A stretch of DNA of 64,000 nt from Sulfurimonas sp. (GCA_028689055.1 JAQTWZ010000001.1:106786-170785), one strand, 5' to 3'; positions 5,522 to 23,832 are shown, counted from the first letter of the stretch. Notes: generated by a model from the letters alone, not told the origin. Translations and numbers: made by a program.

Positions 5522-5556
5522 TATATAGTACACAACACTACACTGTGTACTATATA
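5522..5556. repeat. 13-bp perfect inverted repeat (TATATAGTACACA / TGTGTACTATATA) with a 9-nt spacer
   Basis: Read directly from the sequence. It lies about 100 nt downstream of the last gene of the hsd operon (minus strand). It could be a terminator hairpin or a protein-binding site. Confidence 0.6.
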
Positions 5557-5654
5557 ATTGAGTAGTGTTCTATTCTGAGGACTCTTTTATGCAAAGTGAT
5601 CAACTGTTCATATTTGACAATAAGTATTTGTTCAATATGTAACATTTAAGACTG

Positions 5655-6323
5655 CTACATAAATAGATCTGGGCCATTATTTTTAAGCCATTCTTTTTTT
5701 TCTATATAACTTGGCATCAAACGCTGCACTTCTCTCCAGAATCGTTCATTATGCGTATGCTCCTTAAAGTGAGCAATTTCGTGAATGATAATATAGTCAA
5801 TGACACCTATCGGCGCCATAGCAATCTTCCAGTTAAAATTTAAAACGCCGTCTTTTGTGCATGAGCCCCAACGGTAACCAAGTTCCATTATCTTATACTC
5901 GGGAAGTTCTAGGTTCAGATTTTTGTTTAAAGATTCCAGCCGTTCTTTGATTTTATCTTTTAAATGTTGCGTGTACCAGATTTTAAAGAGCTCTTTCGCT
6001 TTTGGTTGATATTTTTTGCCGAGGATAAACCAGCCATTTTTTAATTTTAAAGCAGAGTCTTCATCAACAATTTTAAGCCTATAACTTCTTCCCAAATAAT
6101 AAAAGCTCTCACCTGAAATAAACTTTTTTTGAGTGACTTTATCGTTATGCTCTTTTTTGATAGCAAGCTTTTCCCAAATCCATAATCTCTTTTTATAGAC
6201 ATGCTTATCTATTTCATCTTTCTCTAGCTCTTGAGGCGCATTTACAACTATGCTACCATTTCTCTCAACTGTTATGCCAATGCTAGAGCGTTTCGATCGT
6301 ACTAGGTCATAATCAATTAGCAA
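5655..6323 (-). CDS. DUF45/YgjP-like zinc metallopeptidase (M48/WLM-like) commonly linked to hsdR
   Basis: HExxH motif in IIIHEIAHFKEHTHNERFW. Probable TTG start. It overlaps the hsdR stop by 11 nt. Confidence 0.75.
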   Translation of the reverse strand: MLIDYDLVRSKRSSIGITVERNGSIVVNAPQELEKDEIDKHVYKKRLWIWEKLAIKKEHNDKVTQKKFISGESFYYLGRSYRLKIVDEDSALKLKNGWFILGKKYQPKAKELFKIWYTQHLKDKIKERLESLNKNLNLELPEYKIMELGYRWGSCTKDGVLNFNWKIAMAPIGVIDYIIIHEIAHFKEHTHNERFWREVQRLMPSYIEKKEWLKNNGPDLFM

Positions 6324-9300
6324 GCTCTAACCTCTTGAGCGGTTCATTGTTTTCTTTGGTAAGGCTCATATATTTTTCTTTTATATCAGGAATGTTTTTT
6401 ATGAGATTGGTTTGTTTTGAGTTTGCGATAAGACCTATCAAATAGTTCTCAAGATTGTGTCTTGAGTTCTCTCCTGTTGCGCCCCAAAAATCAACTCTTT
6501 TTATCTCTCGTGAAGCTTGTTCTACACTATTTATGACCAAATCAACGATAGTGTCGCATACTAAAGATGTACACTCTTCTGCGCTAAAATAACTCGTAAA
6601 GAGATCATAATAAGGCATACAGACTTCACAGTTAATTTTTTCAAACACCTCGAGTATTTCTCGTCCACCTTGCATCTCTTTTTTAAACTTAGAGAGCTTC
6701 TCAACTAACTTTTCCCATTCGCCTTTATGCTCAGCAATAATCTTTTCAAGTTTTTCCGCAAGAGACTTGTAATAAATCGGATCTTTATCAATATTTATTC
6801 GAATGGTATATCTCAGTGCATGTTCCATCTCAGAAGCAACAGCTTTATCTGGTCTGCCCTTGATTGCATCGCCAAACTCTTCATCAAAGATAGAGATCGG
6901 TCTCACTTTTGTTTCTATCCCTTCGCTAATGAGGTGCTCATCTATAAGTGCTCTTACTTTTGCGCCAAGACCTTCAATATTTAACTCCATATCTCTATAT
7001 CTGCGTTGTACTTCATTTTTAATAAGTCCCAATATCTTCGCATCATCTAAGTAGTATTTTTTAATTGGATTTGGCAAAATGAAATCAATAAGTTTTGTGA
7101 ACTCTTTAAACAGTACCTTAAATTCTTGGCGAAGCTTTTCGTCTGCAAGCAATATAATTGTATCTTCTAAAGTAGCATCACTTATCTCCTCAATCCCTTT
7201 TTCCGTAAAAAATTGCATCGCTTTTCTATGAGAGAGTTCTAACTGTGAAAGCTCGCTACTTTTATCACTCATGATGTCTGCGACATCACCGGCTTCATAG
7301 GATGCAAGAGCATCTTTAAGATGCGCTCCAACACCGTAATAATCAACAATAAGTCCTCTTGTCTTACCCTCATAAGTACGATTTACCCTAGCTATTGCTT
7401 GAAGCAGATTATGCGCTGTCAACTTTTTGTCCAGATACATAACTTGTTCTATCGGTGCATCAAAACCGGTAAGAAGCATATCGCTTACCACCAAAAAAGC
7501 AAGCTGGGACGTTTTTTGCATGTCGTAAATATCATCGCCATCTTTAGCATCATAAGGCGACATGCTAAAAAGTGGCTTTTTAAAATTGACTACGCTTTGC
7601 TCTTTATGCGTTTTTGAACTGTACTCTTTTGGAAACTCGTCTGCGTTATCGTTATGCTGATGAGATATGACAACTGTACTGCTTAACTTACCTACAAGTA
7701 CTTTATAAGGGTTATTGCCGTCCATTTTTTGATGGTACTCTGCTAACGCTTTTGAAATAGCTGTGTTGTAACGAAGTGCTGCTTTTCTTGATGAGCTAAC
7801 AACTTGTGCTTTGTAGCCGTTTGGCAATATATTTTCTACATAGTGTCTTACCATGTCTTTGGCGATGGCTTCTATGCGTTTGGGAGCTTCTAAAATATTG
7901 CCCTTTGTACCGTATTTCTTTTTTATCTGTTCTTGCTGCTCTTTTGCTAAATCTGCAAACAAGTCTTCAAACTTACCGTCAAATTCACCCTTGTTCTCGA
8001 TGGCATCTTTGGAAGTCATTCCCTCATAGATGATGGGAACCGTAGCCCCATCATCTACAGCTTCTCTAATCTTATAAGTGTCAATGTAAGAGCCAAAAGA
8101 ATCTACTGTTTTTTCAACCGGTGTTCCCGTAAAAGCAATCCTTACTGCGTTTGGAAGAGCGGTCCTAAGTGCTGCGCCAAGTTTTGAGTACTGCGTTCGG
8201 TGCGCTTCGTCTATGAGTACAAGTATCTCCTCTTTATCGCTAAGAGATTTAAAAGCCTCATCATCATTGAACTTTTGCATCATAGTCATCGTGATATCAC
8301 TCACATCATTAGAGAGTTTCTTTTTCAAGTCATTCGCACTTATAGCAACCGATATTTTCTCACTAGTAAGTGTCGCAGTATCTTCAAGTTGTTCTTCCAA
8401 ATCACTTCTATCGACTATGAATAAAATTTTATAATTTTGCATCTCTTTTTGATGTCTTGAGTGTTTGATGAGAAAAACCATCGTAAGTGATTTTCCGCTT
8501 CCCTGAGTATGCCAAATAACGCCGTTGCGCTCTTTTACACTCTTAGCCTCAACGATTCGTTTTATAGTCTTCTTAACTGCTCTATACTGCTGATAACGGC
8601 ATACGACCTTTACACGTTTGCGTCCGCTTCCCATGACGATAGTAAAATCTCTCATAATTTCAAGAAGGTTTTGCTTACAGAGCATTCCGGCAACTAAAAT
8701 ATCCTGTTCATCACTGCCGAATTTTTCTAGTGATTCTGGATATGGGTCTTTCCAACTAAGATAATGCTCTAATTTTGAGCTGATAGTGCCGGATTTTGCT
8801 TGTGTTCTTGAGGAAGTTACCACGAAGGCATTGGTATTGAAAAGTTTAGAAGCACCTTCGGCCTGTTCAGTTCCTCTTGTGTTCATATACCTTTTAAGTT
8901 GATTGACCGCTTCTGCCATCGGGTCTGTTATATCGGGAGCTTTACACTCGACAACAACCAAGGGGATGCCGTTTACGAAAAGTGTAATATCTGGAATGAT
9001 AGTCTGAGCACCATCGACCATAAACTGTGAAATTGCCAAAAAGTCATTGTTTTTTATATTTTCAAAGTCTATATATCGTACCGTAGGAGATTTTGCACCT
9101 GTGTCATGGTTGAGATCCACCGATGTATTTTCAAGCAAGAGTTCGCTACATGCGAGATTGTTTTCAAAAAGAGAAGATTTGTTGATGTTTTCTAAGGTAG
9201 CTATGACCTCCTTTACCTGCTCATCTTTGAGCCATGAGCCGTTGATTCTTTTTATGGCAGATGAGAGTTTATCTTTTAATAGTACCTCTTTAAAGCTAGT

Positions 9301-9435
9301 TCTATTTAAAAGAGCTTTATCGGTTCTATGTTTATTATCCGCGTCTTCTACAACTAAAGTGTCCCATTCAAGCACTTTTAATTGCTCTAAAAATTTCTCT
9401 TCAACATACTTCGCTTCTCGTATCCAACTGCTCAT
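6313..9435 (-). CDS. hsdR: Type I restriction endonuclease subunit R
   Basis: Helicase motif I WHTQGSGKSLTM and DEAH box LIDEAHRTQY, with an N-terminal nuclease region (VVVECKAP). The preferred start is MSSWIREAKY at 9435, which forms an ATGA overlap with the upstream stop. Confidence 0.93.
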   Translation of the reverse strand: MSSWIREAKYVEEKFLEQLKVLEWDTLVVEDADNKHRTDKALLNRTSFKEVLLKDKLSSAIKRINGSWLKDEQVKEVIATLENINKSSLFENNLACSELLLENTSVDLNHDTGAKSPTVRYIDFENIKNNDFLAISQFMVDGAQTIIPDITLFVNGIPLVVVECKAPDITDPMAEAVNQLKRYMNTRGTEQAEGASKLFNTNAFVVTSSRTQAKSGTISSKLEHYLSWKDPYPESLEKFGSDEQDILVAGMLCKQNLLEIMRDFTIVMGSGRKRVKVVCRYQQYRAVKKTIKRIVEAKSVKERNGVIWHTQGSGKSLTMVFLIKHSRHQKEMQNYKILFIVDRSDLEEQLEDTATLTSEKISVAISANDLKKKLSNDVSDITMTMMQKFNDDEAFKSLSDKEEILVLIDEAHRTQYSKLGAALRTALPNAVRIAFTGTPVEKTVDSFGSYIDTYKIREAVDDGATVPIIYEGMTSKDAIENKGEFDGKFEDLFADLAKEQQEQIKKKYGTKGNILEAPKRIEAIAKDMVRHYVENILPNGYKAQVVSSSRKAALRYNTAISKALAEYHQKMDGNNPYKVLVGKLSSTVVISHQHNDNADEFPKEYSSKTHKEQSVVNFKKPLFSMSPYDAKDGDDIYDMQKTSQLAFLVVSDMLLTGFDAPIEQVMYLDKKLTAHNLLQAIARVNRTYEGKTRGLIVDYYGVGAHLKDALASYEAGDVADIMSDKSSELSQLELSHRKAMQFFTEKGIEEISDATLEDTIILLADEKLRQEFKVLFKEFTKLIDFILPNPIKKYYLDDAKILGLIKNEVQRRYRDMELNIEGLGAKVRALIDEHLISEGIETKVRPISIFDEEFGDAIKGRPDKAVASEMEHALRYTIRINIDKDPIYYKSLAEKLEKIIAEHKGEWEKLVEKLSKFKKEMQGGREILEVFEKINCEVCMPYYDLFTSYFSAEECTSLVCDTIVDLVINSVEQASREIKRVDFWGATGENSRHNLENYLIGLIANSKQTNLIKNIPDIKEKYMSLTKENNEPLKRLELAN

Positions 9436-10778
9436 TTCATAATCTCCCAATGTCCGCCTTTGGCACCGCCGACTCTGTCTATATAACCGTTTTCTTTTAA
9501 TGATTTAATATGTTTTTCTATAGCCGTTGTACTAATGTCGAGTTCTTCAGCCATTTTTGTAATTGCAATTTTTGGATTATTCTGCATGAGCTTCATAATA
9601 GCCTGCTGCGTTTCACCCAACTTTTCACCCAACTTTTCACCCAACCCATTTTCAACTTTTTCACCCAAGTCATTAAAATAAAACTCCACCCATAAACCAT
9701 TTTGCCATCTGAAGTTTGGTGTGATGCCATTGAACTTTTGTGACTCTTCTATGATTTTCTCAATCCCTCTTCCCCAAGACTCTATATATCCAGCCAAGAA
9801 AAAAGGATACGCAATAGCAGGGTTAAAAGGTTCCGATGAGTGTTTATGTTTGAGCGTTTCTAGCGTCCATTGTGTCGGTAATTCTCCGGCATTCCACATG
9901 AGCAACTTATCGTCATACACACTTATTTGGATGCTGTTTTGTGAGGCATAGTCTTTATGCACAACCGCATTAACAAGAGCCTCCCGAAATGCAAGTTCAG
10001 AAACAGGAAAACTCTCTACTCTTTGAACCCCTTCATAAGTGATAATCGCTTTGAGATATTTTGTGAAAATCAAGTCCATGGTTTTATCCACTTGAGCAAA
10101 TAAGTTTCCTTCCACTTGGTCTTGATACACAAGGTCACTATCGGATTTAAAGTATCCTATTTTTATAGTGCTTCCTGTTACATACTTTTGTGGGTCTTTA
10201 GAAAAAAGCAGCGTTGTCGCGCGTTTGAGATAATCGCCCTCTCTTAGGTGAAGCTTATCGACGAGCGTCTCATCACTCTCTTTTAAAAGTTCTGCATCTA
10301 TTCTTTTTTTCTTGTTTGCTTTTTCACGAAATAGCTCTATGGCATAATGATCCAAATCTTTGAAGCCAAAATACGGAACAGGCACACCATCCCATTTCTT
10401 GCCTTGTTTTCTCAAAAGAAACTTATCAAGTGCGGCACCCTTTAGCTCTTGAGTACTGCTTCCGCTTCTGTAGTAGTACGAACCTTTGTAGCTGATAGGA
10501 TACGGATAGTTTTCAGTGATGATTTCAAGATACTCTTTGCCGTTTTCCACATGCCGATTCACATCAACCATCACACCCAAAATATCTCTGACTTTGTTCG
10601 GTATGTCTTCAAGTAGTTTTTTAGCGTTCTCGATTCCAACGATTGCGCCGTCGTCTTCTACCCCGATGTAAATCGTACCACCGTCACTATTTGCAAAAGC
10701 ACAAACCCATTTGATGTAATCATCTTTCCATAATCGTTTAAATTCAATGGTTTGGGATTCATTAATATCAAGGTTCAT
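9432..10778 (-). CDS. AlbA_2 (Schlafen-like) / HATPase_c_4 / C-terminal wHTH protein (COG2865-type putative regulator)
   Basis: N-terminal ESQTIEFKR...FANSDGGTIYIGVEDDG (AlbA_2 signature) and C-terminal HTH KIAITKMAEELDISTTAIEKHIKSLKENGYIDR. Confidence 0.75.
   Translation of the reverse strand: MNLDINESQTIEFKRLWKDDYIKWVCAFANSDGGTIYIGVEDDGAIVGIENAKKLLEDIPNKVRDILGVMVDVNRHVENGKEYLEIITENYPYPISYKGSYYYRSGSSTQELKGAALDKFLLRKQGKKWDGVPVPYFGFKDLDHYAIELFREKANKKKRIDAELLKESDETLVDKLHLREGDYLKRATTLLFSKDPQKYVTGSTIKIGYFKSDSDLVYQDQVEGNLFAQVDKTMDLIFTKYLKAIITYEGVQRVESFPVSELAFREALVNAVVHKDYASQNSIQISVYDDKLLMWNAGELPTQWTLETLKHKHSSEPFNPAIAYPFFLAGYIESWGRGIEKIIEESQKFNGITPNFRWQNGLWVEFYFNDLGEKVENGLGEKLGEKLGETQQAIMKLMQNNPKIAITKMAEELDISTTAIEKHIKSLKENGYIDRVGGAKGGHWEIMK
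9611..9668. repeat. In-frame 12-nt tandem repeat (TTTTCACCCAAC, about 3 full copies plus degenerate copies) encoding (LGEK)n
   Basis: Read directly. It encodes GEKVENGLGEKLGEKLGET in the linker before the C-terminal HTH of the AlbA_2 protein. Confidence 0.8.
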
Positions 10779-12571
10779 CTATTTTTACCTTTTTTATATA
10801 ATTCTTCTTCAATTTCTTCTTCTTTTTCTTTAAGATTTCTTTGAATATAACTCATTCTAGCACGAGCTTCTTGCACAAGTTCTTGATAACTCATAGATAT
10901 GGTTCTTATTGGTCCAGAAGTAGTTTCTCTTTGTATTCCTTCTTCATATTCTGAACCAACTATGTAAACATTAAAAAAAGCCTCTTTAGTAAAAGTTTTT
11001 TTAACAACACTTGCATAACGCTCACCCTGAGCTTTATTTTCAAATGTAATTGCTTGTCCTGGCTTTTTTAATTCTAATATAAGAAATTCATTTCTCATTA
11101 AAATATTTTCTTGCATTTTTATGAACAAATCTGGTCGTTTTGAAGAATGATGACCACTATATGAACTATCTAAAATATTTTGTGAAATAGTTTTTAAACT
11201 TTTATTCGATATAAACCACTCATATCTTTCATCAACAATCCAAATATTTTCTGCAAGCACCTTATGAGTACCTTGCAATTCAAGTGTTTTTGGATCATTA
11301 ACCATCTGTTCAAACGCATCAAGAACTTCAAATCGCTGTTGTAATATTGTCAAAACATCAGCTACTTCCTTTATCCCCCACTGCTGTAAAGCTGCAGCTA
11401 ATTTTGTTATATCTTCATGACGAGCTTCATTAAGTCTTTTTAATATTTCATATACTTCATGTTGTTCATACGATTTCAAAGATAGTTCCATAACAGTTTT
11501 TATCAGATCTTTCTTATTGTATTTGATAGTTTTTATTGATTCTTTGATAGTGTTTTCTGCTGCTTTTCTAGTAAAGCTTGGTAAACTTTCTATGCGATGT
11601 TTATACTCTGGAATAGCCATATTTTTTTTGAACTCTTCCTCTACATCTGTATTGATTTGTAGCTCTACCTCTTCCATTAAAATATTTCGTATTTTTTCTT
11701 TCAACTCTCTTGTTATCTCATTATCTAAAATAGAATCCCAACCTGCAGTAAAATTTACACCTTCTAAATCAGTTAAATCTAGTTCACCATAAATATGTTC
11801 TGCTATTTCCTTTGGTAATTTTGCACCAAAAACATTAGTATCTCCTATAGCCCTATCATTAAATTTTAATTGTATTCCATAATCATTAAGTTTATCAACT
11901 GCATTGATAATCCAACCATTTATATCTTGACCAGCGATATTAATTGAAAATTCATGCTTCTCCCCAATAATCTCTTTAGTTTGGAGTTTTTCACCATTAA
12001 TATAAATTTCAAAATCATCATGCAAACCAAAATTGGATAATAATTTCTGTTTTAGGGTGTCAATAGGTATATCTAACTGTGAAATGTCAACTATAATGAT
12101 AAGTACAGAACTATTTTTTGAAGTTTGTTCCGTTTGTATGTTAATATTGATGTCATTAATATCTTTTTGCTTTTTTATCTCATCATGAGATAATTCAAAC
12201 TTATGTTGTATATTATTTTTAATTACCGTATATTTTAACTTTTTACCAAGTTTAAAACCGGACAATCTACCAATGCCTTTATTGCCTTTTCTTTTTCGGC
12301 CATTTGGTGATGTAGGGGGCTGAGAAGAAACACTAATATTAAAAAATCTATTTTTCAACTCGTCCATGTCCATGCCATGACCATTGTCTTCAAATGTGAT
12401 TACTCGTTCTTCCAACTTATCACTAGATAATGATATTTTTATATCTACCCTACTTGCATCGGCATCATAACTATTTGCAACAAGTTCAACAAAAGGCTGA
12501 TATATATCTTTATATATTTCATCACTTAGTAATTTAAAGATATTTGAATCTGCATGAAAATTTTGAGTCAT
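10775..12571 (-). CDS. GHKL-type ATPase (HATPase_c_3-like) fused to a C-terminal PD-(D/E)xK, Shedu/DUF4263-like nuclease motif
   Basis: Bergerat-fold boxes: ELVANSYDA (aa 29-37), FEDNGHGMD (aa 60-68), GNKGIGRLSGF (aa 96-106). C-terminus: ENIWIVDERYEW...SKRPDLFIK...FLILELKKPG (D481, E500, K502). Confidence 0.7.
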   Translation of the reverse strand: MTQNFHADSNIFKLLSDEIYKDIYQPFVELVANSYDADASRVDIKISLSSDKLEERVITFEDNGHGMDMDELKNRFFNISVSSQPPTSPNGRKRKGNKGIGRLSGFKLGKKLKYTVIKNNIQHKFELSHDEIKKQKDINDININIQTEQTSKNSSVLIIIVDISQLDIPIDTLKQKLLSNFGLHDDFEIYINGEKLQTKEIIGEKHEFSINIAGQDINGWIINAVDKLNDYGIQLKFNDRAIGDTNVFGAKLPKEIAEHIYGELDLTDLEGVNFTAGWDSILDNEITRELKEKIRNILMEEVELQINTDVEEEFKKNMAIPEYKHRIESLPSFTRKAAENTIKESIKTIKYNKKDLIKTVMELSLKSYEQHEVYEILKRLNEARHEDITKLAAALQQWGIKEVADVLTILQQRFEVLDAFEQMVNDPKTLELQGTHKVLAENIWIVDERYEWFISNKSLKTISQNILDSSYSGHHSSKRPDLFIKMQENILMRNEFLILELKKPGQAITFENKAQGERYASVVKKTFTKEAFFNVYIVGSEYEEGIQRETTSGPIRTISMSYQELVQEARARMSYIQRNLKEKEEEIEEELYKKGKNR

Positions 12572-12579
12572 TTCTTTCC

Positions 12580-15501
12580 TTAGTTATTTTTATTATTATT
12601 TTTACATTTAAAAATGCGATCTTCCACTTCATCTTTATCAAAATCAGGAGGAGTAGGCTTAAAACTTTTATCATCCTTTTGTAACTCATACTCTAATACT
12701 TGAAATTCACGTAACTTGGCAATATCTAATTTTGTTGTTAAAATTGTTGCATTATTTCCACCCTTAATCTTTATAAGGTCTTTAATATCTGTTCTAGATG
12801 GTTGATGTACTCTATTATCACCATATTTTGCGTCATTAGATTGTATAAAGTAACAATGTAAATCTCTTGCACTAGATTCGATAATATTTGAAAAGTATGA
12901 TGTATCTTTATTAAACTCACTAGCTACAATAAAATCAACCTTAGATTTAAAAAGTGCTCTTGCATGAATATCGGTTAATTCATAACAATTAAAGGTTGTA
13001 AATGAAAGATTTTTCCATAGATACTTATGATAACTTTTTCTTTCATATTCTGGAATTTTATATCTATATCCTTCTAAAATACGTTTTTCCTCTGGTGAAT
13101 AATTATTTTTTAATCTGAAGTCAACAATTAAAGAATTGTATTTACCCATTTTAATTGGTAATAGAGTGACAATAATGTTATATGCTTTATTACCTGATAT
13201 TATATGTTCCATGCCAAATACCATTGCGAGCTGATTTTTATTTGCGTTGTCAATAATCCAGCTTAACCAATTTAATGGAATTGAACATTCTGGTAAGACT
13301 AATAAGTCAACAGATTCTTTTACACTTTGATTAATAAGCTCTTGAATTTCAGTTTTTCTTTGATGTGAAGGTTTTGGATTTCTAATATATTCTTTACTAA
13401 AAATAGTTTCATCAATCCTAATATTTGCCAAAGCTATGTTTAATGATTTTTTGCAATCATCTTCATTGATAGTAATTGAATAAATATGATGATTATTAGG
13501 ATTCACATTTTCATCAATAGCATCAATAGCATCAACAATTCCTAATTTTTTTTCTTTTTTACAATGCTGATAGTTATAGCATTCAAATAATTTTTTAGAT
13601 TTGTTTAATACAGACTCAGCACTTGTTATATTATTACCAAGGATATTTTCTTCAATCCTATATAGGTACTCTAAAATTGATATTTCATGTAAATGAATAA
13701 ATCGTGAAGGATAATTACATGTTTCTTGCAGTTTTGAAATTTTATCTGGTTCTATAAAATCAAGATAAGGTACCGTATTAAATGCTTCTACAAAATTCAG
13801 TATAGAATACTTCATATAACTTTTACGCGTTAAGTCGGCATTTCTTATTTGAAGTATTTTATCAATACTAGGTAGTAACTTTTTAATTTTTTCCGCAGCT
13901 TTTTCAACTATAGAATCTATGAAATATTGAGGACGCAGTGCAGCTGCAGAACTGATTGCGATAGATAAATGTATCAAAAAATCTTCAGCGATTTTTTTAT
14001 CTTTTACTGGTAGTTTTTTTAATGCCAGCTCAATATTTTTAATAAATTTATAGAAACTATTACGATCTTTAGTGATAATAAAATATGTGAATATTTTTTC
14101 CCATAATGTGTAATATTCTAAAGATTTTTTTTCTTTAAAAAATTGTAAAATTTGGGTAGAAGTTGCTTGATCAACTTTACTTTTCATTTGAAGACTTAAA
14201 AATATTTTTTTAGCTAAAAATGAAGAAATAGTAAACCTGTCCTCTTGGAATTCTTTAATGCTTCTTAGTTTATTCACTGAACCGTCATAAATAATTTTAA
14301 TTGTAGATTCTTCAAAACTTTCATTGGCTAAATCTTCATCAGGCAAGAATCTATATTCGCTACTTGATCTTCGAATTTCTTTTACAAATCGATCAAGCAT
14401 TGACAAAGAACTCTTATGATCAAAAAACATTACTGATATTTTGCTATTTTGAATAGTAAGATTACTATATTGTTCAGCTGCTAATTTATAAAGAATATCA
14501 CCATCTTTTTTAGCTATGTTGTCACAACTCTCACATCTAAGTATATTTGTATCAAGAAAGTATTTCTTTATAACTTCCTCAGTTTTTGTATACTTACTTG
14601 AACTATCCACACAAATCGTAAGCAATATATCATCAACATATCTACCATAAAACAAAGGATTTATCTCTTTCTTAGCTAATAGATCAAAATCCCGTAAATA
14701 ATAATTTGCAAGTACTCCAGATGATAAAAAACCAATAGGTAAAATTGGTTTTTTATCATGCTTTTTTAATATTTTTTTTGTATAAAAATCATGGATTGCA
14801 AACAATAATGATGTTAGTGGATTTGCTTTACTGTAAGTACCTATAGTTTTCAGAAGGTTTTCTTCATTTAGTTCAATTGAATGATAATAGTCTTTAATAT
14901 CTAATCCAATTAGTAATGTATTTTTCTTTTCTTCAATAATATTTTTTGCGGTTTGAATAGACTTATCACGCCATTTTTGATACTCTTCATAGTATGGCTT
15001 AAATAATCTTAGCCCATTTACAATTTCACCTTCAGAATCTAATTCTAGTTTATAACCATATAAATCTTCTTGCCCTTTTTGTAATACATAACCTTCTCTC
15101 ATAATCCATAAAACTGTAATTATATGAATCTCGATTGGAGCATTGACAAATTGAATTTCTCTTTTAACTTCAATTTTTTCATTACTTACTACATTGCTAA
15201 GTAGGCTGTCTTTTAATTCTTCATCTTTTTCATAACTCTTTGGAAGAGACCAAAAACTCATCTGCTTTAAAAGATTATTCATATAAGTATTTAATGATTT
15301 TATTGACTCATGATCTCTATTAATAATATCCTCTAATACTATTTGTAGTTCTTCAAATTTATACTCAAAATCTGTTGATTCAAATTCTGCAAGCTGTTCT
15401 CTAAGAAAAAGATTACTGTTATCATAATAAACATAATGCTTTAATTTTTTATAAGCATTTTGAATTTCATTTAATTCTATTTTTAATTTTAATGTACTCA
15501 T
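12580..15501 (-). CDS. Reverse transcriptase fused to a C-N hydrolase (nitrilase-superfamily) domain; DRT type 1 / UG-class-1-like defence RT
   Basis: RT motif A LIGLDIKDYYHSI (D201), motif B ILPIGFLSSGVLANYYLRDFD, motif C FYGRYVDDILLT (YVDD 288-291). A helical region of about 300 aa follows. The C-terminal putative E-K-C triad is LVLPECS (E738), FRLKNNYSPEE (K798), TTFNCYELTD (C839). Confidence 0.8.
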   Translation of the reverse strand: MSTLKLKIELNEIQNAYKKLKHYVYYDNSNLFLREQLAEFESTDFEYKFEELQIVLEDIINRDHESIKSLNTYMNNLLKQMSFWSLPKSYEKDEELKDSLLSNVVSNEKIEVKREIQFVNAPIEIHIITVLWIMREGYVLQKGQEDLYGYKLELDSEGEIVNGLRLFKPYYEEYQKWRDKSIQTAKNIIEEKKNTLLIGLDIKDYYHSIELNEENLLKTIGTYSKANPLTSLLFAIHDFYTKKILKKHDKKPILPIGFLSSGVLANYYLRDFDLLAKKEINPLFYGRYVDDILLTICVDSSSKYTKTEEVIKKYFLDTNILRCESCDNIAKKDGDILYKLAAEQYSNLTIQNSKISVMFFDHKSSLSMLDRFVKEIRRSSSEYRFLPDEDLANESFEESTIKIIYDGSVNKLRSIKEFQEDRFTISSFLAKKIFLSLQMKSKVDQATSTQILQFFKEKKSLEYYTLWEKIFTYFIITKDRNSFYKFIKNIELALKKLPVKDKKIAEDFLIHLSIAISSAAALRPQYFIDSIVEKAAEKIKKLLPSIDKILQIRNADLTRKSYMKYSILNFVEAFNTVPYLDFIEPDKISKLQETCNYPSRFIHLHEISILEYLYRIEENILGNNITSAESVLNKSKKLFECYNYQHCKKEKKLGIVDAIDAIDENVNPNNHHIYSITINEDDCKKSLNIALANIRIDETIFSKEYIRNPKPSHQRKTEIQELINQSVKESVDLLVLPECSIPLNWLSWIIDNANKNQLAMVFGMEHIISGNKAYNIIVTLLPIKMGKYNSLIVDFRLKNNYSPEEKRILEGYRYKIPEYERKSYHKYLWKNLSFTTFNCYELTDIHARALFKSKVDFIVASEFNKDTSYFSNIIESSARDLHCYFIQSNDAKYGDNRVHQPSRTDIKDLIKIKGGNNATILTTKLDIAKLREFQVLEYELQKDDKSFKPTPPDFDKDEVEDRIFKCKNNNKNN

Positions 15502-16724
15502 CTAACCCTCACATTCCCGCTAAGTAAATCATTCATCAAGCCTTTTTTTAGCTCTTTTAGTTTGGCTAGGTTAGCTTCTTCTTTTTCGATTTTTTTATCT
15601 TGAGTGGTTAGGATTTTCGCAGTCTTTTTTTGTTCTTCGATATCTAGTGGACAAGGTAAAAGCAATTTTGAAAAGGATGATTTATTTACAATCGGTACAG
15701 CTTGTAATCCAGCTTCTGTATCCAATTGTCTTTGTAAAAATTGGTTCATGGCATAAAATACAAATCCATAATAATATTTTTTGTTACACATCAAAGCATT
15801 TATTTGTTGATTTGTACAACATTGTTTTATGGTTAAAGCTATTTTCCCAATTGTTGAGCCTATGCATACCGTTAGAATTGCTTTTTCAGAAATTTCTCTT
15901 GAATATTTAAGACCCTCTTGTGATACAGTTTTTTCAGTTTTTACAATATATTTTTGTCCCTTAAAGTCCACTGGACCGATGAAAGGCACATTACCATTGT
16001 AAAATTCTTCATTATCTGTTGAAGGAGTGTTTCCCGTAACTACATTTCCAACTTCTTCTAAACTCACAACCTCCCACTCCTCAGGGATGAGCCCTAATTC
16101 ACTTTGTTTGTATTTATGTGTTTGTGGGGTGCGGATTTTGTTGTTTTTGTCTATGCCGTTGGTTAGCAAGTCGTGCATCAAGCCTTTTTTGATATTTTTT
16201 TCTTTATCGATGAGTTTTGCGGTTGACTCTATAGTTTTATCAAGAGTTGAGAGGACTTTGGCTATTTTTTGCTGTTCTTTTATTTCTTTTGGATATTTAA
16301 TCAATAATTTACCAAAATCATTTTTGCTTATTGCTAGAAATGTGCTTCCTTGAGCTAATCTATCTAATTGAACCTTTTCTTGAAATAAAGAATAAAATCC
16401 GAACTCATTATCTAACTTTGTTATTGTAAGTGCGGCTAAACCTCTTCCAATACAATAACTTTTGTCAGCTAAATTCATATCACCGACAGGTGCTCTAACA
16501 CTAATAAGAATATCACCTTGTTTAGCTATCTTTTTAGGTACGGTAACCCAATATAATTCCATGGGATTTATATTTCCGAACTCTGCATTACCTTGCAAAA
16601 ATGGTATCCCATCCTGACTTTCATTTACAAATTCAGAATCAGGAGATTGCCCCATATTAATGCTTGCTAAAGCTGAAAAAGGTTTTACTTCCCACCCCTC
16701 GGGCACATTCATAACTTCGCTCAT
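15498..16724 (-). CDS. hsdS: Type I R-M specificity subunit S
   Basis: Two target-recognition halves, each followed by a conserved helix ([17 protein letters not shown] and [17 protein letters not shown]). The preferred start is [13 protein letters not shown] at 16724 (ATGA overlap with the hsdM stop), not the track's 16820. Confidence 0.9.
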
Positions 16725-18940
16725 AGATACCCAAGCTCTGCTAAAAACTCTTTTATCTCTGCGGTTGATTCGTCGCGCTCTTTTTCTATCTGCTCTAAAC
16801 TTACTTGGTATTTGTCCCAAAGGTTTTCTGTGCTTTTTATGATGGCTTGTTTTTTCTCATTTAGGTATCTGTTTGCTATTTCAAGTGCATCGGTTTTTAG
16901 CTGTTGTACTACAAAGGGTTTCACATCTGCGATGTTTTCAAATATTTGCTCTTTTATTTGAGCGATTTTTTCTCTTATGACGACTCTGTCGTTTTCTTCT
17001 TTGGCAGATTTTAGTTTTTTGAGAAGCTCCATATACTTGGCATGTGGAAGGTGCGCTTCTTCAGCAAGTGTATCTACAAACGCGCTGCTGCTCAAAAACT
17101 TCTCGCTTAAAAGATTGTAGTCGTAACCGCTGTTTTTTATGGACTTGATTGTAAATTTATTTTCAACCCACCATGAAGCGAAAATGCCTCGTATCTTAAA
17201 TCTGTCTATCACTTCATGGCTTGTTGACGTAAACGCTTTTTCTATGAGAGCATAGCCCTCAACATAGAGTGTGGCGATGTTGCTGCTCTTTTCATCCACA
17301 AGTGTTTGATAGCCATCGTGCCATGTGGAAACTATGCCAAGCACCATTGCATCCGTCTTTTTAAAACCCTCCGAAGCTTCTAACACTTCTCTTATGTTTT
17401 GTTTTTCTTGTATGGTCTGTATAAATTCATAGTAGTTTTCATCTTTGGTTTGAAAAATATCGCTCGGAGTCAGCATGTAGTTAGCCATCAAAGGGGCGTT
17501 CCACTCGCACTTTGGAATGCCGCCCTTGAGATGCGCTTTGACATCGTGAGGTTCTGCCGGGGGAGTGTTGTCTACATAGCGTCTTATGTTTAGGTTGAAA
17601 CCCTCTTTTTCCAACTCTTCTATGCTTACAAGCTTGGAGTAGTTTACAAGCTCAAGAGTGTTTTGATACGCAAAGTTGATTTTTTCTATATCTTCGGCTC
17701 TAAGATTGTTTTGGTTTTTCCCCTCTTTGTACTCTGCGTCTGCGTTTATAAAAAGGATTTTGTCATCTTTTTTGGCTTTGTTGATGATGAGCAGAGAAGC
17801 AGGAATGCCCGTGCCGTAAAACAGCCCCGATGGCAAGCCTATCACCGCTTCAAGAATGCCGAGTTCTTTGATGAGATGCTTTCTAAATTCACCCTCGACA
17901 CTCCCGCGAAAGAGCACTCCATGCGGCATAACCACACCCATTTTACCACTGCTTTTAAGTGAGGCTATCATATGCTGGACAAACATATAATCGCCTTTTT
18001 TGCCACCCTCAGGCATAAAGTGAGAAAATCTCTCTTTGAAAGTCATGTCGGATTTTTTGTAGTTTTGAGAAAAAGGCGGGTTGGCTATAACTCTGTCAAA
18101 CTGCATCAACTGCCCATCTTTTGTGTGGAGCGGTTTTTCTAGCGTGTCTTCGTTCTTTATGTCTGCATTTGATATGCCGTGCAAAATCATATTCATCTTG
18201 CACATCGCCCAAGTGGTCGCTATGGCATCTTGCCCGTTAAGCGAAAAGTCGTTTGAGTTATAAATCTCTTTGATGTGCTCTTTTGCCTGAATGAGCATAC
18301 CACCGCTTCCCACCGTAGGGTCGTAAATGCTCATGCCGGGTTTTGGGTCGAGGATTTTTACCAGAAGTGTCACCACTCCGCTTGGCGTGTAAAACTCTCC
18401 CGCTTTTTTGCCCGCACTATCTGCAAAATACTTTATGAGATACTCATACGCCGCACCTAAGAGGTCGGGAAATTCAAAATCCTCATCCCTGAGACGAATC
18501 TTATCAAAGTGCTGAAGGAGTTGTTGGAGTTTTGCATCGGAGATTTTAGAGTTGCCGACTTTTTTGTTAAAGTCTATATGCTTGAGTACATCTTCTAGGG
18601 ATGAAAGATTGGCTTCTTCTATGGCAGAGAGTGCTATGTTTAGGTTTTCACCTATGTTTTTTTTGAGGTGTCTGAGGGTTTCCCATTTTGCATTTTGAGG
18701 GATGGTAAAAGTAAATTTATGATTTGCTAAAAGTATCTCTATGGTGGCATCGTCATGTCCATCTTTTTTGTAGCTGTCTCTTACTCTGTTGTACTCTACA
18801 TCGTACTGGTCTGAGAGCCGTTTGAGAAAAAGCATACCGAAAATATACTCTTTAAACTCACTCGCCTCCATCTTGCCGCGAAGTATGTCAGCGGCTGAAA
18901 AAAGGTGTTGTTCTAGTTGAGAAAGGGTGAGTTTTTGCAT
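16721..18940 (-). CDS. hsdM: Type I R-M N6-adenine DNA methyltransferase subunit M (with a long C-terminal extension)
   Basis: AdoMet motif [12 protein letters not shown] and catalytic VIANPPFS. N-terminal HsdM_N-like region [14 protein letters not shown]. At 739 aa it is longer than the roughly 520 aa I would expect. Confidence 0.93.
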
Positions 18941-19159
18941 CTATATCAGTCCATCTTTTTGCATTCGTTCTTGTAGGGCTATTGTTATATATGAGTTCAC
19001 AGTTCCACCATAATATGCTTTAATTTTATCTTCCCATTCTATCGGAATGTTGATAAGTTTTTTCTTTTTATTAAACGCTTTTTCATTTTTTACGTTTTCA
19101 TTCATAGCTGCCGAAGATTTTACTTGTTCTATATTTTTGAGAAATGATGATTTTGCCAT
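18941..19159 (-). CDS. Small basic protein following parA (possible ribbon-helix-helix/ParG-like partner); function uncertain
   Basis: 72 aa. It lies 40 nt downstream of parA and its stop abuts the hsdM ATG with no gap. The only fold hint is the C-terminal NSYITIALQERMQKDG. Confidence 0.4.
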   Translation of the reverse strand: MAKSSFLKNIEQVKSSAAMNENVKNEKAFNKKKKLINIPIEWEDKIKAYYGGTVNSYITIALQERMQKDGLI

Positions 19160-19199
19160 TTTATATTCCTTAGATATTTAAAATATATACTTTTAATAT

Positions 19200-19844
19200 T
19201 TATACTATATTTAATTTTAACTTTACTTCTTCAAATAAAGCATCAAATTCTTGGTCAGCCTTAGAAAAGATACGAAACTCTTTTATGCTTTTTCCGACAC
19301 CTATAGAGTTTGCTATATCAACACGCTGTCTTATAACGGAAGTCATAAGTTCAAAGTGTTCTGACATACAAATGAACTCTATCAAGTCACCGAAGTTTTT
19401 CATTGCCGGATTGAGATTGTTAAATAGAACATTTGTTTTAATAGTCTCTTTTTGTATTTCCGAAAGTGATTTCAGTATCTCTTCATATTTTTGTAATCCC
19501 ATTAGATCAAAGGGTTTGTCTGAAACAGGAGTAATGAGTAAATCTGAGCCGACAATTGCAACTCTATTAAACGCACTGTCAAATCCACCAGAGTCAATGA
19601 TGGTCAATGCGTTTGGCTTGTCATTTTCAATGTGCAAAGCAAGCTCACCTGCGTTACTGACATGTTTGATAGTTAGAGGATCTAAACCTTGGGACTTTCT
19701 GATTTGATTTGTTTGCGTTAATGACTGCTGAGTATCTAGGTCAATAATTGTGGTCGGCAGGTGTTTTGAAAAGTGAACAGCCAAATTCCAAGCTATTGTC
19801 GACTTTCCAACACCACCTTTTTGATGAGAGACAGCTAATATCAT
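19200..19844 (-). CDS. parA: ParA/Soj-family partition ATPase
   Basis: Deviant Walker A SHQKGGVGKSTIAWNLA, then IIDLDTQQS and IIDSGG. Confidence 0.85.
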   Translation of the reverse strand: MILAVSHQKGGVGKSTIAWNLAVHFSKHLPTTIIDLDTQQSLTQTNQIRKSQGLDPLTIKHVSNAGELALHIENDKPNALTIIDSGGFDSAFNRVAIVGSDLLITPVSDKPFDLMGLQKYEEILKSLSEIQKETIKTNVLFNNLNPAMKNFGDLIEFICMSEHFELMTSVIRQRVDIANSIGVGKSIKEFRIFSKADQEFDALFEEVKLKLNIV

Positions 19845-19894
19845 ATATACTCTTTATATTTTTAAGATATAAAAAGTATATACTTTATATACTT
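19844..19894. repeat. TATATACT[TC] iterons upstream of parA (three copies, two in tandem; a fourth copy at 19184-19192)
   Basis: Read directly: 19844-19852 TATATACTC; 19877-19885 and 19886-19894 TATATACTT. 19874-19885 forms the 12-bp palindrome AAGTATATACTT. Confidence 0.55.
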
Positions 19895-20300
19895 AATGTT
19901 TACGAGAAAAATTTATAATAAGCTGATGAGCTATGAATAGTTCGGGCCAAATTATCCATTGTCTGTCACTTTGCTCATCTGCACTTTGGTAATAGACACC
20001 AAGCATCAGTGCTTTAAATGTCAATGTTTCTTTGTTTTGACTATCGATAAATATGTATCCTTCTTGAATAAACAAATTGACTAGGTGTGATCGCCTAATT
20101 TTATGTGAATTTGCAAGGGTTGATGTGGAAACATAACCCTTTTTTGTAATTTTAGAGCTTCTTCTTCTTTTTGCTATTTTTTGATAAATTTTTCTATTGA
20201 CAAGATTTGGATAAATGTTGAATTTATGTAACAAGATCAATTTCAATAAATAGAATTTTATAAAAAATTTAATAAGAAACAGTTGCATTTTAATCTCCAT
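19893..20300 (-). CDS. Hypothetical protein
   Basis: ORF only. Its N-terminal 30 aa look non-genic, so the true start may be internal. I recognise no motif. Confidence 0.35.
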   Translation of the reverse strand: MEIKMQLFLIKFFIKFYLLKLILLHKFNIYPNLVNRKIYQKIAKRRRSSKITKKGYVSTSTLANSHKIRRSHLVNLFIQEGYIFIDSQNKETLTFKALMLGVYYQSADEQSDRQWIIWPELFIAHQLIINFSRKH

Positions 20301-20769
20301 TTTTTAAAAATTTGTAAAAATTAGAAACGAGTGTGTGTGAGACTTCTAATCTATGGAATTTAAGTAAATATTGGGAGATTTTTCTAAAAGACAGTTTTTC
20401 TTTTTCTCTCAACTCTAAAATCACATTTTGGATATTCAGCAATTTATCAAACTTATCTCTTTGCTTGTAATTTTGCATCATTTTACTCCTTATTTTTGTG
20501 GGATTTTTAACATTTTTTATGTCATCAGTTCTATTTTTTTTATGAACATTTTTTGCTAAATTATAAATTTCAACGACAGCTTTAACATAGGAAGCCGCGC
20601 CAAGTAAGGATAAATCTAAATCAGAATGTTTACTTTTTAGTTGGAAAAAGTAATTTTTTTGTAATTTAAATATCTCAAGCATTACCTCAAAATGTTGTCT
20701 GCACGCCCACCGGCATGCAGTTTGAAATTCTTTTTCAGAAACCCTTGTGATTTTAATGATCTCTCTCAT
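20290..20769 (-). CDS. Hypothetical protein with a possible C-terminal HTH
   Basis: The ORF overlaps both neighbours. LSFRKISQYLLKFHRLEVSHTLVSNFYKF is HTH-like. Confidence 0.45.
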   Translation of the reverse strand: MREIIKITRVSEKEFQTACRWACRQHFEVMLEIFKLQKNYFFQLKSKHSDLDLSLLGAASYVKAVVEIYNLAKNVHKKNRTDDIKNVKNPTKIRSKMMQNYKQRDKFDKLLNIQNVILELREKEKLSFRKISQYLLKFHRLEVSHTLVSNFYKFLKNGD

Positions 20770-21008
20770 AAACTTACCTTCATTTTGTTTGAGATGATGT
20801 ATTCAGCGACATCATCAATTGAAAACTCTACTGTTGCATTTTTTGCTTCTCCAGCTTTTGAATATGCTAAGCCAAAGCCATTTTTTTGGCGTCTGTCCAG
20901 GGTACTTGTCGATATGTTGAGGATCTCTGCAACTTGAGTTCTGCTTAAAACTAGTGTTTTGTATTTTGCCTCGATTCTGTCTTCCATATGTTTTTGTTTT
21001 TCTTGCAT
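20766..21008 (-). CDS. Small HTH DNA-binding protein (excisionase/AlpA/Cro-like position)
   Basis: LSRTQVAEILNISTSTLDRRQKNG helix-turn-helix. It is the first gene transcribed leftward from the divergent control region. Confidence 0.6.
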   Translation of the reverse strand: MQEKQKHMEDRIEAKYKTLVLSRTQVAEILNISTSTLDRRQKNGFGLAYSKAGEAKNATVEFSIDDVAEYIISNKMKVSL

Positions 21009-21107
21009 TAATACCTCCAGGTATAATTAATTTTTATCAAGTGACGTCATTTTGATATTTAAAATGTATCAAATCAAAAAGAATATTTTTAGTAAGTAAA
21101 GATTTTC

Positions 21108-21136
21108 TTGACTTATAGATTTATAATACTTATAAT
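21108..21136 (+). promoter_or_regulatory. Sigma-70-like promoter TTGACT-17 nt-TATAAT for the XRE repressor gene
   Basis: TTGACT at 21108-21113 and TATAAT at 21131-21136 with a 17-nt spacer (counted). The ATG lies at 21183. Confidence 0.45.
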
Positions 21137-21182
21137 TCAATTAGTGTAAAGGAAATCTTTACTTTATAAATATGGGGAATAT

Positions 21183-21854
21183 ATGGAAAAAATATCTGAT
21201 AGATTAAAATATATAAGAAAAAAATTAAATTTAACGCAAGAAGTGTTGGCAAAAGAAATGAAAGTGTCAAAGCAGACATATAGCACGATTGAGCAAAATA
21301 ATAGAAAACTGCACATAGAAGAAGTAATAATATTGAAAAATACATTTAATATTAATCCAAATTGGCTATTGCTTGGTCTAGGAGACGAAGAATACATTAC
21401 AAACATAAAAGAATCGGAATTAGTTAATCTCATTTTAGACTTTAGAAGAAGTTACGATGGTGAAGTAGACATAGTTAAAATAGAAATTATAAAAAAAATA
21501 TTATTGAAATTTTATCAGCAAGAATATAGTATTTTGGGTGTACCAAAACAATTTCATAGTGTAGGCAATAGATTGCATGCCTACTTCATAAGAATTCTAG
21601 AAAGTACTAATTTTTCAGGTCTCGAAGAAGAATCGAAAAATTATTTGCGGACACAAATTGAAGAATACACCGATAAACCTAGGTTACAACTAGAAATAAA
21701 AAAAGAGTTATATTCTCTACTTGCGAATATAAATAATAAAGATTGTAGCTACATGTTGAAAAATAAAGATATTACTATTAGACTAATTGATCAAAAAATT
21801 CCAGCAATAGATAAAAAAATAAATAATTTTTTGCCTAAGTTTATTTCATTTTAG
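21183..21854 (+). CDS. XRE-family (cI-like) repressor with an uncharacterised C-terminal domain
   Basis: N-terminal HTH LKYIRKKLNLTQEVLAKEMKVSKQTYSTIEQNNRKL. It is divergent from the leftward gene set. Confidence 0.75.
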   Translation: MEKISDRLKYIRKKLNLTQEVLAKEMKVSKQTYSTIEQNNRKLHIEEVIILKNTFNINPNWLLLGLGDEEYITNIKESELVNLILDFRRSYDGEVDIVKIEIIKKILLKFYQQEYSILGVPKQFHSVGNRLHAYFIRILESTNFSGLEEESKNYLRTQIEEYTDKPRLQLEIKKELYSLLANINNKDCSYMLKNKDITIRLIDQKIPAIDKKINNFLPKFISF

Positions 21855-22227: not shown

Positions 22228-22278
22228 ACCTACGATGACAATGAGATAATCTATTATCTGCTTTTTTTATTGCCTTCT

Positions 22279-23034: not shown

Positions 23035-23035
23035 C

Positions 23036-23407: not shown

Positions 23408-23419
23408 TTAATTATTCTC

Positions 23420-23797: not shown

Positions 23798-23832
23798 CTG
23801 AACTCCTATTTGTTCTTGAATATACTTTTCTT

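Follow-up and report, generated by a model that had tools for sequence, protein, structure and literature searches.

A UG5-large reverse transcriptase–nitrilase gene carried in a type I restriction–modification operon of Sulfurimonas sp.

We analysed a stretch of 64,000 nucleotides (nt) from Sulfurimonas sp. (GCA_028689055.1, JAQTWZ010000001.1:106786–170785; below, the window) with respect to the gene at positions 12580–15501 of its minus strand, which encodes a reverse transcriptase (RT) fused to a nitrilase-superfamily domain and lies inside a type I restriction–modification (R-M) operon. It is practically certain that this gene belongs to the UG5-large family of RT-nitrilases (Class 3 UG/Abi; DRT11 or 'DRT5L'). 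The family is already described and experimentally validated elsewhere, and the window gene is largely an ordinary example of a known defence module. The reading that we favour, with a probability of roughly 0.8, is that the gene would be a self-contained, single-polypeptide abortive-infection module carried as cargo by the R-M operon. For anti-phage function, for abortive infection and for template-free protein priming we rely on the literature on homologues; on that footing a defence function of the protein appears very likely. The gene and its domains are as follows.

12580–15501, minus strand: UG5-large (DRT11 / 'DRT5L' family) RT-nitrilase gene, an open reading frame of 973 amino acids (aa) and a stop codon with an ATG start, from translation
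14422–15168, minus strand: RT fingers and palm, aa ~112–360, including D201 and the YVDD motif (aa 288–291, nt 14629–14640), from Pfam RVT_1, conservation, DRT11 alignment and Foldseek
13570–14238, minus strand: alpha-helical middle region, aa 422–644, from DSSP on the AlphaFold2 (AF2) model
12637–13446, minus strand: nitrilase (C-N hydrolase) superfamily domain, aa ~686–955, from conservation, PADLOC RTasNitrilase, DRT1/DRT11 alignment and Foldseek
13288–13290, 13108–13110, 12985–12987 and 12979–12981, minus strand: codons of the catalytic residues E738, K798, C839 and E841, respectively

The initial annotation of the locus, made from the sequence alone, described a 973-aa RT fused to a nitrilase-superfamily domain, and this description holds: the open reading frame, a PADLOC match with E = 4e-227 and the predicted fold of the C-terminal domain agree with it. 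All six sequence strings that it quoted occur at the residue numbers it gave, namely LIGLDIKDYYHSI (aa 197–209), ILPIGFLSSGVLANYYLRDFD (aa 253–273) and YVDD in the RT, and LVLPECS with E738, FRLKNNY with K798 and FNCYELTD with C839 in the nitrilase domain. The Pfam search that it recommended gave a significant RVT_1 match (E = 1.9e-9, aa 184–301). Among 5.8 billion proteins searched there were 621 homologues, most of which, with few exceptions, are 940–1140 aa long and aligned over 97–100% of the query; because of these homologues and the Pfam RVT_1 and PADLOC scores, a chance origin of the open reading frame was rejected.

In an alignment of 196 family members, with identities down to about 26%, residues D201, Y288, V289, D290, D291, E738, K798, C839 and E841 are 100% conserved. 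The proposed Glu-Lys-Cys triad (E738, K798 and C839), which also aligns with DRT1 and DRT11, is thus made up of conserved catalytic residues. Judged from these residues, D201, YVDD and E738/K798/C839/E841 form an intact catalytic set, and the enzyme is predicted to be active. At aa 599 (13705–13707, minus strand), which lies in the coil linking helical region and connector, Pro occurs in 98% of the 196 members and Ser in the window protein.

The family is widespread. A scan with one genome per species found it in Bacteroidota, Firmicutes, Proteobacteria and Cyanobacteria as well as in several archaea, with at least 523 relatives, and a scan of viral contigs gave only about eight near-full-length UG5-large members, adding nothing beyond Mestre et al. 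2022. An identical RT protein is present in the metagenome-assembled genome (MAG) GCA_028713105.1. Full-length UG5-large homologues with 27–31% identity were also seen in archaeal MAGs of Methanoregulaceae, Methanolinea, Methanoregula and Thermoplasmata (loci L036, L043, L051 and L077).

The assignment to the defence-associated UG/Abi RTs stands, being supported by the PADLOC UG5 match and by alignments with DRT5L, DRT11 and DRT1; the narrower label given at first, DRT type 1 or UG class 1, has to be replaced by UG5, Class 3. The PADLOC model RT_UG5-nitrilase (PDLC03780) matches aa 7–962 over profile positions 20–898 of 907 with 755 bits, and the runner-up from a different family scores below 100 bits. 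DRT type 1 (UG1) was rejected, since the Drt1a model reaches 88 bits over the RT core only and the protein has 973 aa against an expected 1200–1300 aa. According to Mestre et al. 2022 (PMC9226505), the nitrilase- or phosphohydrolase-associated RTs UG1, UG5, UG6 and UG29 make up Class 3, while Class 1 is the HEAT-repeat-fused group. Membership of Class 1 UG/Abi, with its HEAT-like or alpha-repeat fusion and no hydrolase domain, was likewise rejected, given the nitrilase domain of the window protein.

A search of the Protein Data Bank (PDB) with the family profile gave DRT1 (9YFD) as the best match, over both domains (E = 8.6e-26), followed by matches to the RT core only: Drt3a, then retron-labelled RTs (8e-8 to 1.3e-4) and group II intron RTs (1.8e-4 to 8.6e-3). 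Placement with the retron or group II intron RTs, named by the initial annotation as evidence against the UG/Abi assignment, was not seen in this search. A retron or group II intron RT was therefore rejected, DRT1 being far stronger in the profile search and the window containing no Rfam retron or intron RNA. UG5-large is the UG5 variant with a fused nitrilase, and 31 of its 299 members have a transmembrane (TM) protein downstream (Mestre et al. 2022, PMC9226505). This partner (clusters 85/1858) does not follow the window RT, whose next gene encodes a soluble GHKL ATPase; a TM-like downstream open reading frame was found in 6 of 72 family loci. The TM partner is not defining for UG5-large, because DRT11 works without one.

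The AF2 model of the protein, built with 42 sequences, has a mean predicted local distance difference test score (pLDDT) of 84.9 and a predicted template modelling score of 0.84. A helical region of about 300 aa had been proposed after the RT; the model supports helices at aa 422–554 and 604–644, after which, ahead of the nitrilase domain, comes a small beta unit (aa 659–693) that the proposal had not foreseen. In a Foldseek search of a PDB target set without 9YFD, the N-terminal half matched DRT4/UG15, AbiK and G2L4 RTs. The top 12 matches of the C-terminal domain were all nitrilase-superfamily structures (E from 4.8e-9, target-normalised template modelling score ~0.51–0.70), among them the amidases and nitrilases 6ypa, 2w1v, 1j31 and 3ivz, so that the C-terminal domain has a nitrilase fold in the predicted model, as the fold comparison suggested at the outset was meant to establish. 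The PADLOC RTasNitrilase model matches aa 714–956 (E = 6.7e-29), and the nitrilase-domain profile alone matches DRT1 with E = 1.3e-14, aligning C839 to the catalytic C1116.

Two results count against a conventional nitrilase assignment. The CN_hydrolase match that the initial annotation had looked to was not obtained, Pfam giving none at E ≤ 0.01, and the nitrilase-domain profile does not match canonical nitrilases significantly (E ~0.4–1). The assignment consequently rests on the PADLOC model, the fold search and the resemblance to the nitrilase domains of DRT1 and DRT11, and the substrate of the domain may be unusual.

The closest experimentally characterised relatives bear directly on the function. 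DRT11 (S. meliloti RMO17 pSymA, NZ_CP009145.1, 109344–112361) aligns with the window protein in the RT domain (E = 3e-24) and in the nitrilase domain (E = 3e-32). YVDD at aa 288–291 corresponds to 294–297 in DRT11, and K798, C839 and E841 to K833, C876 and E878, residues published for DRT11. Both proteins have about 1000 aa arranged as RT, helical or connector region and C-terminal nitrilase, share the motif S-E-[YFW]-R-x-x-P and have neither a TM partner nor a non-coding RNA (ncRNA). They differ in that identity is 24–28% in the two conserved domains, with a middle region that BLASTP cannot align, and in setting: DRT11 comes from Alphaproteobacteria and lies on a megaplasmid beside toxin–antitoxin modules, whereas the window gene is from Campylobacterota and lies in a type I R-M operon. 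Sanchez-Nieto et al. 2026 reported that this TM-less UG5-large protein, which they named DRT11, protects S. meliloti from podovirus-like phages in a manner dependent on the multiplicity of infection, as in abortive infection, and that defence requires the YVDD motif and the nitrilase Cys (PMC13436386).

DRT5L is collinear with aa 13–962 of the window protein (29% identity, E = 3e-97) and has the same motifs. Its sequence was machine-read, with character-recognition errors, from the supplement of Neville et al. 2026, where DRT5S is labelled UG5-small; DRT5L has all UG5-large hallmarks. In that work, purified DRT1, DRT5S and DRT5L made DNA from deoxynucleoside triphosphates with no added template, RNase A being present, and the DNA of DRT1 and DRT5 was freed only by proteinase K, that is, covalently attached; for DRT5L, DNA synthesis and covalent attachment alone were reported (PMC13275509).

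More is established for DRT1 (UG1, Klebsiella pneumoniae, 9YFD), whose priming residue, Ser402, lies in a loop unresolved in the map. DNA adducts drive the formation of tetramers and then of dormant filaments, for which a structure was solved; a domain-swapped C-terminal tail, itself essential, closes the nitrilase site; and activation requires the T4 Dda helicase, the nitrilase substrate being unknown (PMC13275509). DRT1 resembles the window protein as a Class 3 RT-nitrilase with an aligning catalytic Cys and C-terminal tail and a conserved Ser at roughly the same place, in a flexible loop after the palm. It differs in UG group and length (1229 aa vs 973 aa), in a Ser402 motif not common to the two at the sequence level, and in the lid residue Lys1219, which is not clearly conserved. 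By analogy, DRT1 is the probable mechanistic template for the window protein. The statement that the mechanism of such fusions is unresolved is thus partly out of date, with DRT11 validated and DNA synthesis by DRT1 and DRT5 and the DRT1 filament structure known.

Other systems are related more loosely. The RT-nitrilase of E. coli E101, compared here by its description only, is UG5-large and anti-phage and is found on a mobile element, at a hotspot of variable defence genes. As described in the papers through which we know it, this system requires a downstream TM protein (Rousset et al. 2022, via PMC9226505 and PMC13436386), whereas the window RT is followed by the soluble GHKL ATPase. AbiK, Abi-P2 and DRT4 (UG15) are also UG/Abi RTs that attach untemplated DNA covalently to themselves, and DRT4/UG15 and AbiK are among the best structural matches of the RT half; they belong, however, to Class 1 or 2, lack a nitrilase effector, prime from Tyr and have other helical C-terminal domains.

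We next consider where in the window protein DNA might be attached and how the nitrilase site might be covered. Two segments are of interest.

14332–14367, minus strand: predicted priming loop, aa 379–390 (SSSEYRFLPDED), with the candidate Ser381 at nt 14359–14361, from conservation, low pLDDT and a motif common to DRT11, DRT5L and DRT5S
12640–12663, minus strand: C-terminal tail motif F947-K948-P-T-P951-P952-D-F, candidate counterpart of the domain-swapped DRT1 lid, from conservation and the DRT1 tail alignment

Among the 196 relatives, position 381 is Ser in 193 and Thr in two, that is, a hydroxyl residue in 195, and in the segment from the palm to the helical region no other Ser, Thr or Tyr position is nearly invariant. 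The motif that contains it is N-S-S-E-F-R-F-L-P-x-E-D, in which P387 is kept in 189/196, and the stretch aa 381–390 is the least confident of the AF2 model (mean pLDDT 48). The motif is common to DRT11 (S385), DRT5L and the UG5-small protein DRT5S. A profile of the loop region aligns with DRT1 up to Ile395 (E ~0.2–0.5), and ungapped extension of this alignment puts Ser381 at about DRT1 residue 400, some two residues from Ser402 and after the equivalent helix, in a different surrounding motif. On the basis of the conserved hydroxyl, the low-confidence loop, the common motif and the position near Ser402, we predict Ser381 as the priming residue for DNA attachment, a prediction to which we give a roughly even chance of being right. 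Several considerations speak against it. Enzymes of the AbiK type prime from an N-terminal Tyr. In the window protein Y170, Y174 and Y285 are near-invariant hydroxyl residues as well, and the alignment that brings Ser381 close to Ser402 is weak. The DRT1 authors, moreover, state that conservation of Ser402 does not extend to other class 3 DRTs (PMC13275509). No UG5 priming residue is named in the literature that we searched.

The tail pattern F-K948-P-T-P-P-[DN]-[FY] is strongly conserved (K948 in 195, P951 in 192 and P952 in 184 of the 196 relatives) and aligns with the C-terminus of DRT1, ...PAGFK1226. It is a candidate for a lid-like role, the counterpart of DRT1 K1219 being ambiguous. Against control by such a lid, the residue equivalent to the essential K1219 in the hidden Markov model alignment is K942, which is conserved in only 84/196 relatives.

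Taken together, these comparisons suggest the following course of events. The RT domain, without an RNA template, would start DNA on its own side chain (Ser381 by our prediction) and produce short, semi-random, covalently attached single-stranded DNA. Driven by the DNA adduct, the proteins would oligomerise via their nitrilase domains and form an armed but auto-inhibited assembly, with the C-terminal tail probably lying over the nitrilase site. A factor of the replication stage of the phage would lift the inhibition, upon which the E738-K798-C839-E841 site would act on an essential substrate, halting the infected cell and the phage. The RT-nitrilase would be a second line of defence, acting independently behind restriction. 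The parts of this scheme differ in probability: template-free protein priming by the window RT we consider likely, while DRT1-like filament control is a tentative suggestion, somewhat short of an even chance. It should be noted that identity to characterised proteins is only 24–29%, and that filaments, lid inhibition and a helicase trigger were demonstrated for DRT1 only (PMC13275509); both points weigh against the scheme.

The host operon consists of seven genes on one strand, from hsdM to a YgjP-like gene, in which neighbours either overlap in ATGA or stand a very short distance apart. Besides the RT gene, it contains the following.

16721–18940, minus strand: hsdM, type I R-M methyltransferase, 739 aa (Pfam N6_Mtase, E = 3e-101, and HsdM_N; PADLOC MTase_I)
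15498–16724, minus strand: hsdS, type I R-M specificity subunit, 408 aa (Pfam Methylase_S in two stretches; NCBI gene call on the contig)
10775–12571, minus strand: MORC-type GHKL ATPase with a C-terminal PD-(D/E)xK-like motif, 598 aa (Pfam HATPase_c_3; Foldseek)
9432–10778, minus strand: Schlafen/AlbA_2–HATPase_c_4–winged-helix gene, 448 aa, directly upstream of hsdR (Pfam)
6313–9450, minus strand: hsdR, type I restriction subunit (Pfam HSDR_N, SWI2_SNF2, ResIII, T1R_D3-like)
5655–6323, minus strand: YgjP-like metallopeptidase gene, usually the last gene of this operon type (Pfam YgjP-like, E = 2e-57)

The true start of hsdR is likely the ATG at 9435, overlapping the upstream stop. A YgjP-like gene also follows hsdR in L003, L007, L010, L026, L034, L059 and L088 (L numbers denote the loci compared). 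The RT had been placed between hsdS and hsdR; the position is correct, although the RT is not alone there, the GHKL ATPase and Schlafen/AlbA_2 genes occupying the same interval. As had also been stated, the RT start overlaps the hsdS stop by 4 nt (ATGA, 15498–15501), 8 nt lie between the RT stop and the next start codon, and the flanks leave no space for a cis ncRNA; the 8 nt contain a AAGGAAAG ribosome-binding site. From this arrangement the RT is probably co-transcribed and translationally coupled with hsdS. A scan for promoters and terminators stayed at chance level and was uninformative, which is a point against this coupling, as co-transcription is read from the gene overlaps only.

The guanine–cytosine (GC) content is 26.2% in the RT gene and 29.3% in the GHKL gene, against 34–42% in the hsd genes and 36.4% in the whole window. 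Among 80 reference-genome loci of the family, five are strictly embedded (hsdM-hsdS...RT...hsdR-YgjP), in Tenacibaculum, Aquimarina, Marinomonas, Bermanella and a Melioribacteraceae MAG; about 12 have any type I R-M gene within 10 kb, and about 85% have none. On a neighbour-joining tree, embedded RTs form at least four separate groups from three phyla, interleaved with non-embedded relatives (the tree has no bootstrap, and the clade count is approximate). A single RT subfamily dedicated to R-M was rejected, the embedded members being polyphyletic on this tree. In Sulfuricurvum the scaffold hsdM-hsdS...SLFN-hsdR-YgjP carries other cargo and no RT. Independent defence genes inside type I R-M operons are documented: TgvAB in V. 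cholerae, the C. jejuni rlo genes, PrrC and the survey of Payne et al. 2024. Given the low GC content, the same scaffold with other cargo, the interleaved clades, the 5/80 embedded loci and this documented embedding, the RT gene is horizontally acquired AT-rich cargo in a variable hsdS–hsdR slot.

The nearest relatives show how the slot varies. L001 (94% identity) has the order hsdS-RT-GHKL. L002 (74%) has hsdM-hsdS-RT-Schlafen-like-hsdR with no GHKL gene in the slot. L003 (46%) adjoins an integrase and has hsdM-hsdS-[382-aa unknown]-RT-Fic-hsdR-YgjP, and L004 (45%) is without R-M genes. In the L003 slot an unannotated 382-aa gene (7793–8941) precedes the RT and a Fic-domain gene (11792–12586) follows it, all joined by overlaps. 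In L007, L010 and L034, which are phylogenetically separate, the RT stop lies 1–5 nt from the hsdR start, and in L026 the distance is 40 nt; the RT in the former three is thus coupled to hsdR and not, as in the window, to hsdS.

The gene downstream of the RT encodes a protein with Foldseek matches to MORC3, MORC2 and MORC4 (E ~1e-14) and an invariant signature, R479-P-D481...E500-L-K502. In PADLOC it gives weak REase_II matches only, and an NCBIfam BbrUII/HgiDII match falls below threshold. By motif and secondary structure only, its C-terminus resembles a putative PD-(D/E)xK nuclease, and the gene may be an uncharacterised ATP-dependent restriction-like defence gene. Homologues with 58–75% identity occur in Sulfurimonas, Sulfuricurvum and Aliarcobacter and form a small family, mostly from Campylobacterota. 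Their contexts, always without an RT, are the hsdM-hsdS...Schlafen-like-hsdR-YgjP scaffold (with PIN and other genes), a type III-like R-M cluster, and a position beside an AAA_21 ATPase. From the contexts of the RT and GHKL homologues it follows that the hsdS–hsdR interval behaves as a slot collecting independent defence genes.

In Sulfuricurvum (L088 and L089, 8362–13820) the slot holds six cargo genes, namely a 199-aa gene, GHKL, genes of 388 aa and 308 aa, DUF4325 and PIN, mostly without Pfam annotation. By 'guilt by embedding' these are candidate defence genes. A gene with Schlafen/AlbA_2 and HATPase_c_4 domains also stands directly before hsdR, with an ATGA overlap, in L002 (4662–6458) and L088 (13884–15677), in operons with different cargo; the Schlafen/AlbA_2 gene looks like a fixed part of the scaffold rather than variable cargo.

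The window is chromosomal, with SecY, RpoA and TrpB present; its SecY falls in a 90%-identity cluster with S. gotlandica, in agreement with a Sulfurimonas host. In the region of the R-M operon there are also genes for a tyrosine integrase, for HipA and for a ParA-like ATPase. The part upstream of hsdM, at about 19200–30600, resembles the remainder of an integrated island with many small open reading frames. Its recognisable genes are listed below.

19200–19844: ParA-like ATPase
21183–21854: helix–turn–helix protein
26946–28097: HipA
28207–29481: tyrosine integrase
29351–30592: weak Hda/DnaA-like ATPase match

No att-like direct repeats of at least 14 nt were found between 5300–5700 and 18900–31200, and the window contains no tRNA gene.

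We then examined the DNA in and around the RT gene for an RNA that might act as template. No cis RNA is associated with the window RT. Rfam gave no match anywhere in the 64 kb. In the 72 family loci with usable flanks, 12 have at most 20 nt upstream and nine have at most 60 nt on both sides, and because these loci leave no room, a flanking RNA cannot be a requirement of the UG5-large family. A scan of synonymous rates against L001 and L002 revealed no region silent in both. At RT aa 776–850 (12952–13176, minus strand), no silent change was seen over about 75 codons (0/75) against L001 where about 10 were expected, whereas the rate against L002 is normal to high. An embedded RNA at this place was rejected, as the silence is not repeated against L002 and reads as a recombination tract or chance; a recent recombination tract over the K798–C839 part of the nitrilase domain is likely.

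Nucleotide homology with L001 and L002 begins about 135–141 nt upstream of the RT start, inside hsdS, the rest of which is unrelated. This block of about 135 nt encodes the conserved C-terminal region of HsdS (...LKKGLMxDLLSGxVRV[KR]) and shows the same degree of conservation in hsdS of L088 and of L003, where the RT does not follow directly. Its substitutions are biased to third positions (14/25 and 23/39), and its RNA fold has z = −0.02 relative to shuffled sequences. The block as an element or RNA travelling with the RT was rejected on account of its HsdS coding, its conservation without the RT, the third-position bias and this z value.

On these data a templated RT, which would copy an RNA provided in trans or lying within coding sequence, in the manner of retrons, DRT2, DRT3 and DRT9, is a reading to which we give hardly any credence. 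The intact RT active site would be compatible with templated synthesis, and an upstream gap of more than 200 nt in 28 of about 70 family loci would accommodate it. The lack of flanking room at the window locus and in 9/72 relatives argues the other way, as do the empty Rfam search, the lack of consistent synonymous constraint within the gene and an upstream block explained by HsdS coding; for DRT11, RNA-seq detected no ncRNA, and a 179-bp deletion upstream of the predicted promoter was tolerated (PMC13436386). The initial annotation had left protein priming, a template in trans and an embedded template side by side; protein priming is now favoured, with direct support from the full-length homologue DRT5L, and the template options are disfavoured. 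Very improbable, too, is a two-gene system in which the RT-nitrilase acts with the downstream GHKL ATPase/PD-(D/E)xK protein, for example through RT-made DNA that licenses or guides the nuclease. The two genes share a low GC content (26% and 29% against 34–42% in the flanks), stand 8 nt apart and are kept together in L001 with 94% (RT) and 97% (GHKL) aa identity to the window. This pair is nevertheless confined to the window and L001, no GHKL homologue occurring in the other 83 RT loci examined; L002, at 74% identity, lacks GHKL in the same slot, the GHKL homologues stand without an RT in the three contexts described above, and DRT11, a characterised UG5-large member, requires no partner. On the contexts of its homologues, the GHKL gene was rejected as a partner of the RT.

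A functional tie to restriction itself is the remaining alternative, and we regard it as quite improbable. Here the embedded RT-nitrilase, co-translated with HsdS, would act as a PrrC-like guard, held silent by the Hsd complex or monitoring it, and would become active once that complex is disabled by a phage anti-restriction protein. Like the window RT, PrrC, TgvAB and the rlo genes are independent defence genes lodged among the hsd genes of type I R-M operons, and the position between hsdS and hsdR is that of PrrC, an anticodon nuclease and the classic guard, which according to Payne et al. is nearly always found inside type I R-M. Coupled expression is suggested by the ATGA overlap with hsdS, embedding arose in at least four RT clades of three phyla with the RT stop as close as 1–5 nt to hsdR in L007, L010 and L034, and protection by TgvAB is 10–100-fold greater in the full R-M cluster than alone. 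The proteins and chemistry of these systems are unrelated to those of the window RT, however, and PrrC is nearly always R-M-embedded and physically controlled by R-M, whereas UG5-large genes mostly lie elsewhere, with about 85% of the 80 reference-genome homologues lacking a type I R-M gene within 10 kb and only 5/80 strictly embedded. Embedded and non-embedded members are interleaved in the tree, we found no residues or domains specific to the embedded ones, the slot also takes unrelated cargo (MORC-like GHKL, PIN, Fic), and in heterologous hosts the DRT11 gene and the DRT1 gene each confer protection by themselves. If the guard were real, the sensing of R-M integrity would be tied to DNA synthesis without a template.

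Overall, the data favour the self-contained UG5-large module described at the outset, and the locus is to be annotated as a UG5-large/DRT11-type defence RT-nitrilase, not as DRT1, and as cargo in a type I R-M operon. The predicted role of Ser381 (Ser385 in DRT11) goes beyond the literature that we found and is specific and cheap to test. Beyond that literature, too, is the finding that the hsdS–hsdR slot has captured UG5-large genes repeatedly, the cases coming from three phyla and at least four clades, often with overlaps or gaps of 1–5 nt; owing to this repeated tight embedding, such operons are handy natural material for the question of co-location versus functional coupling of layered defences.

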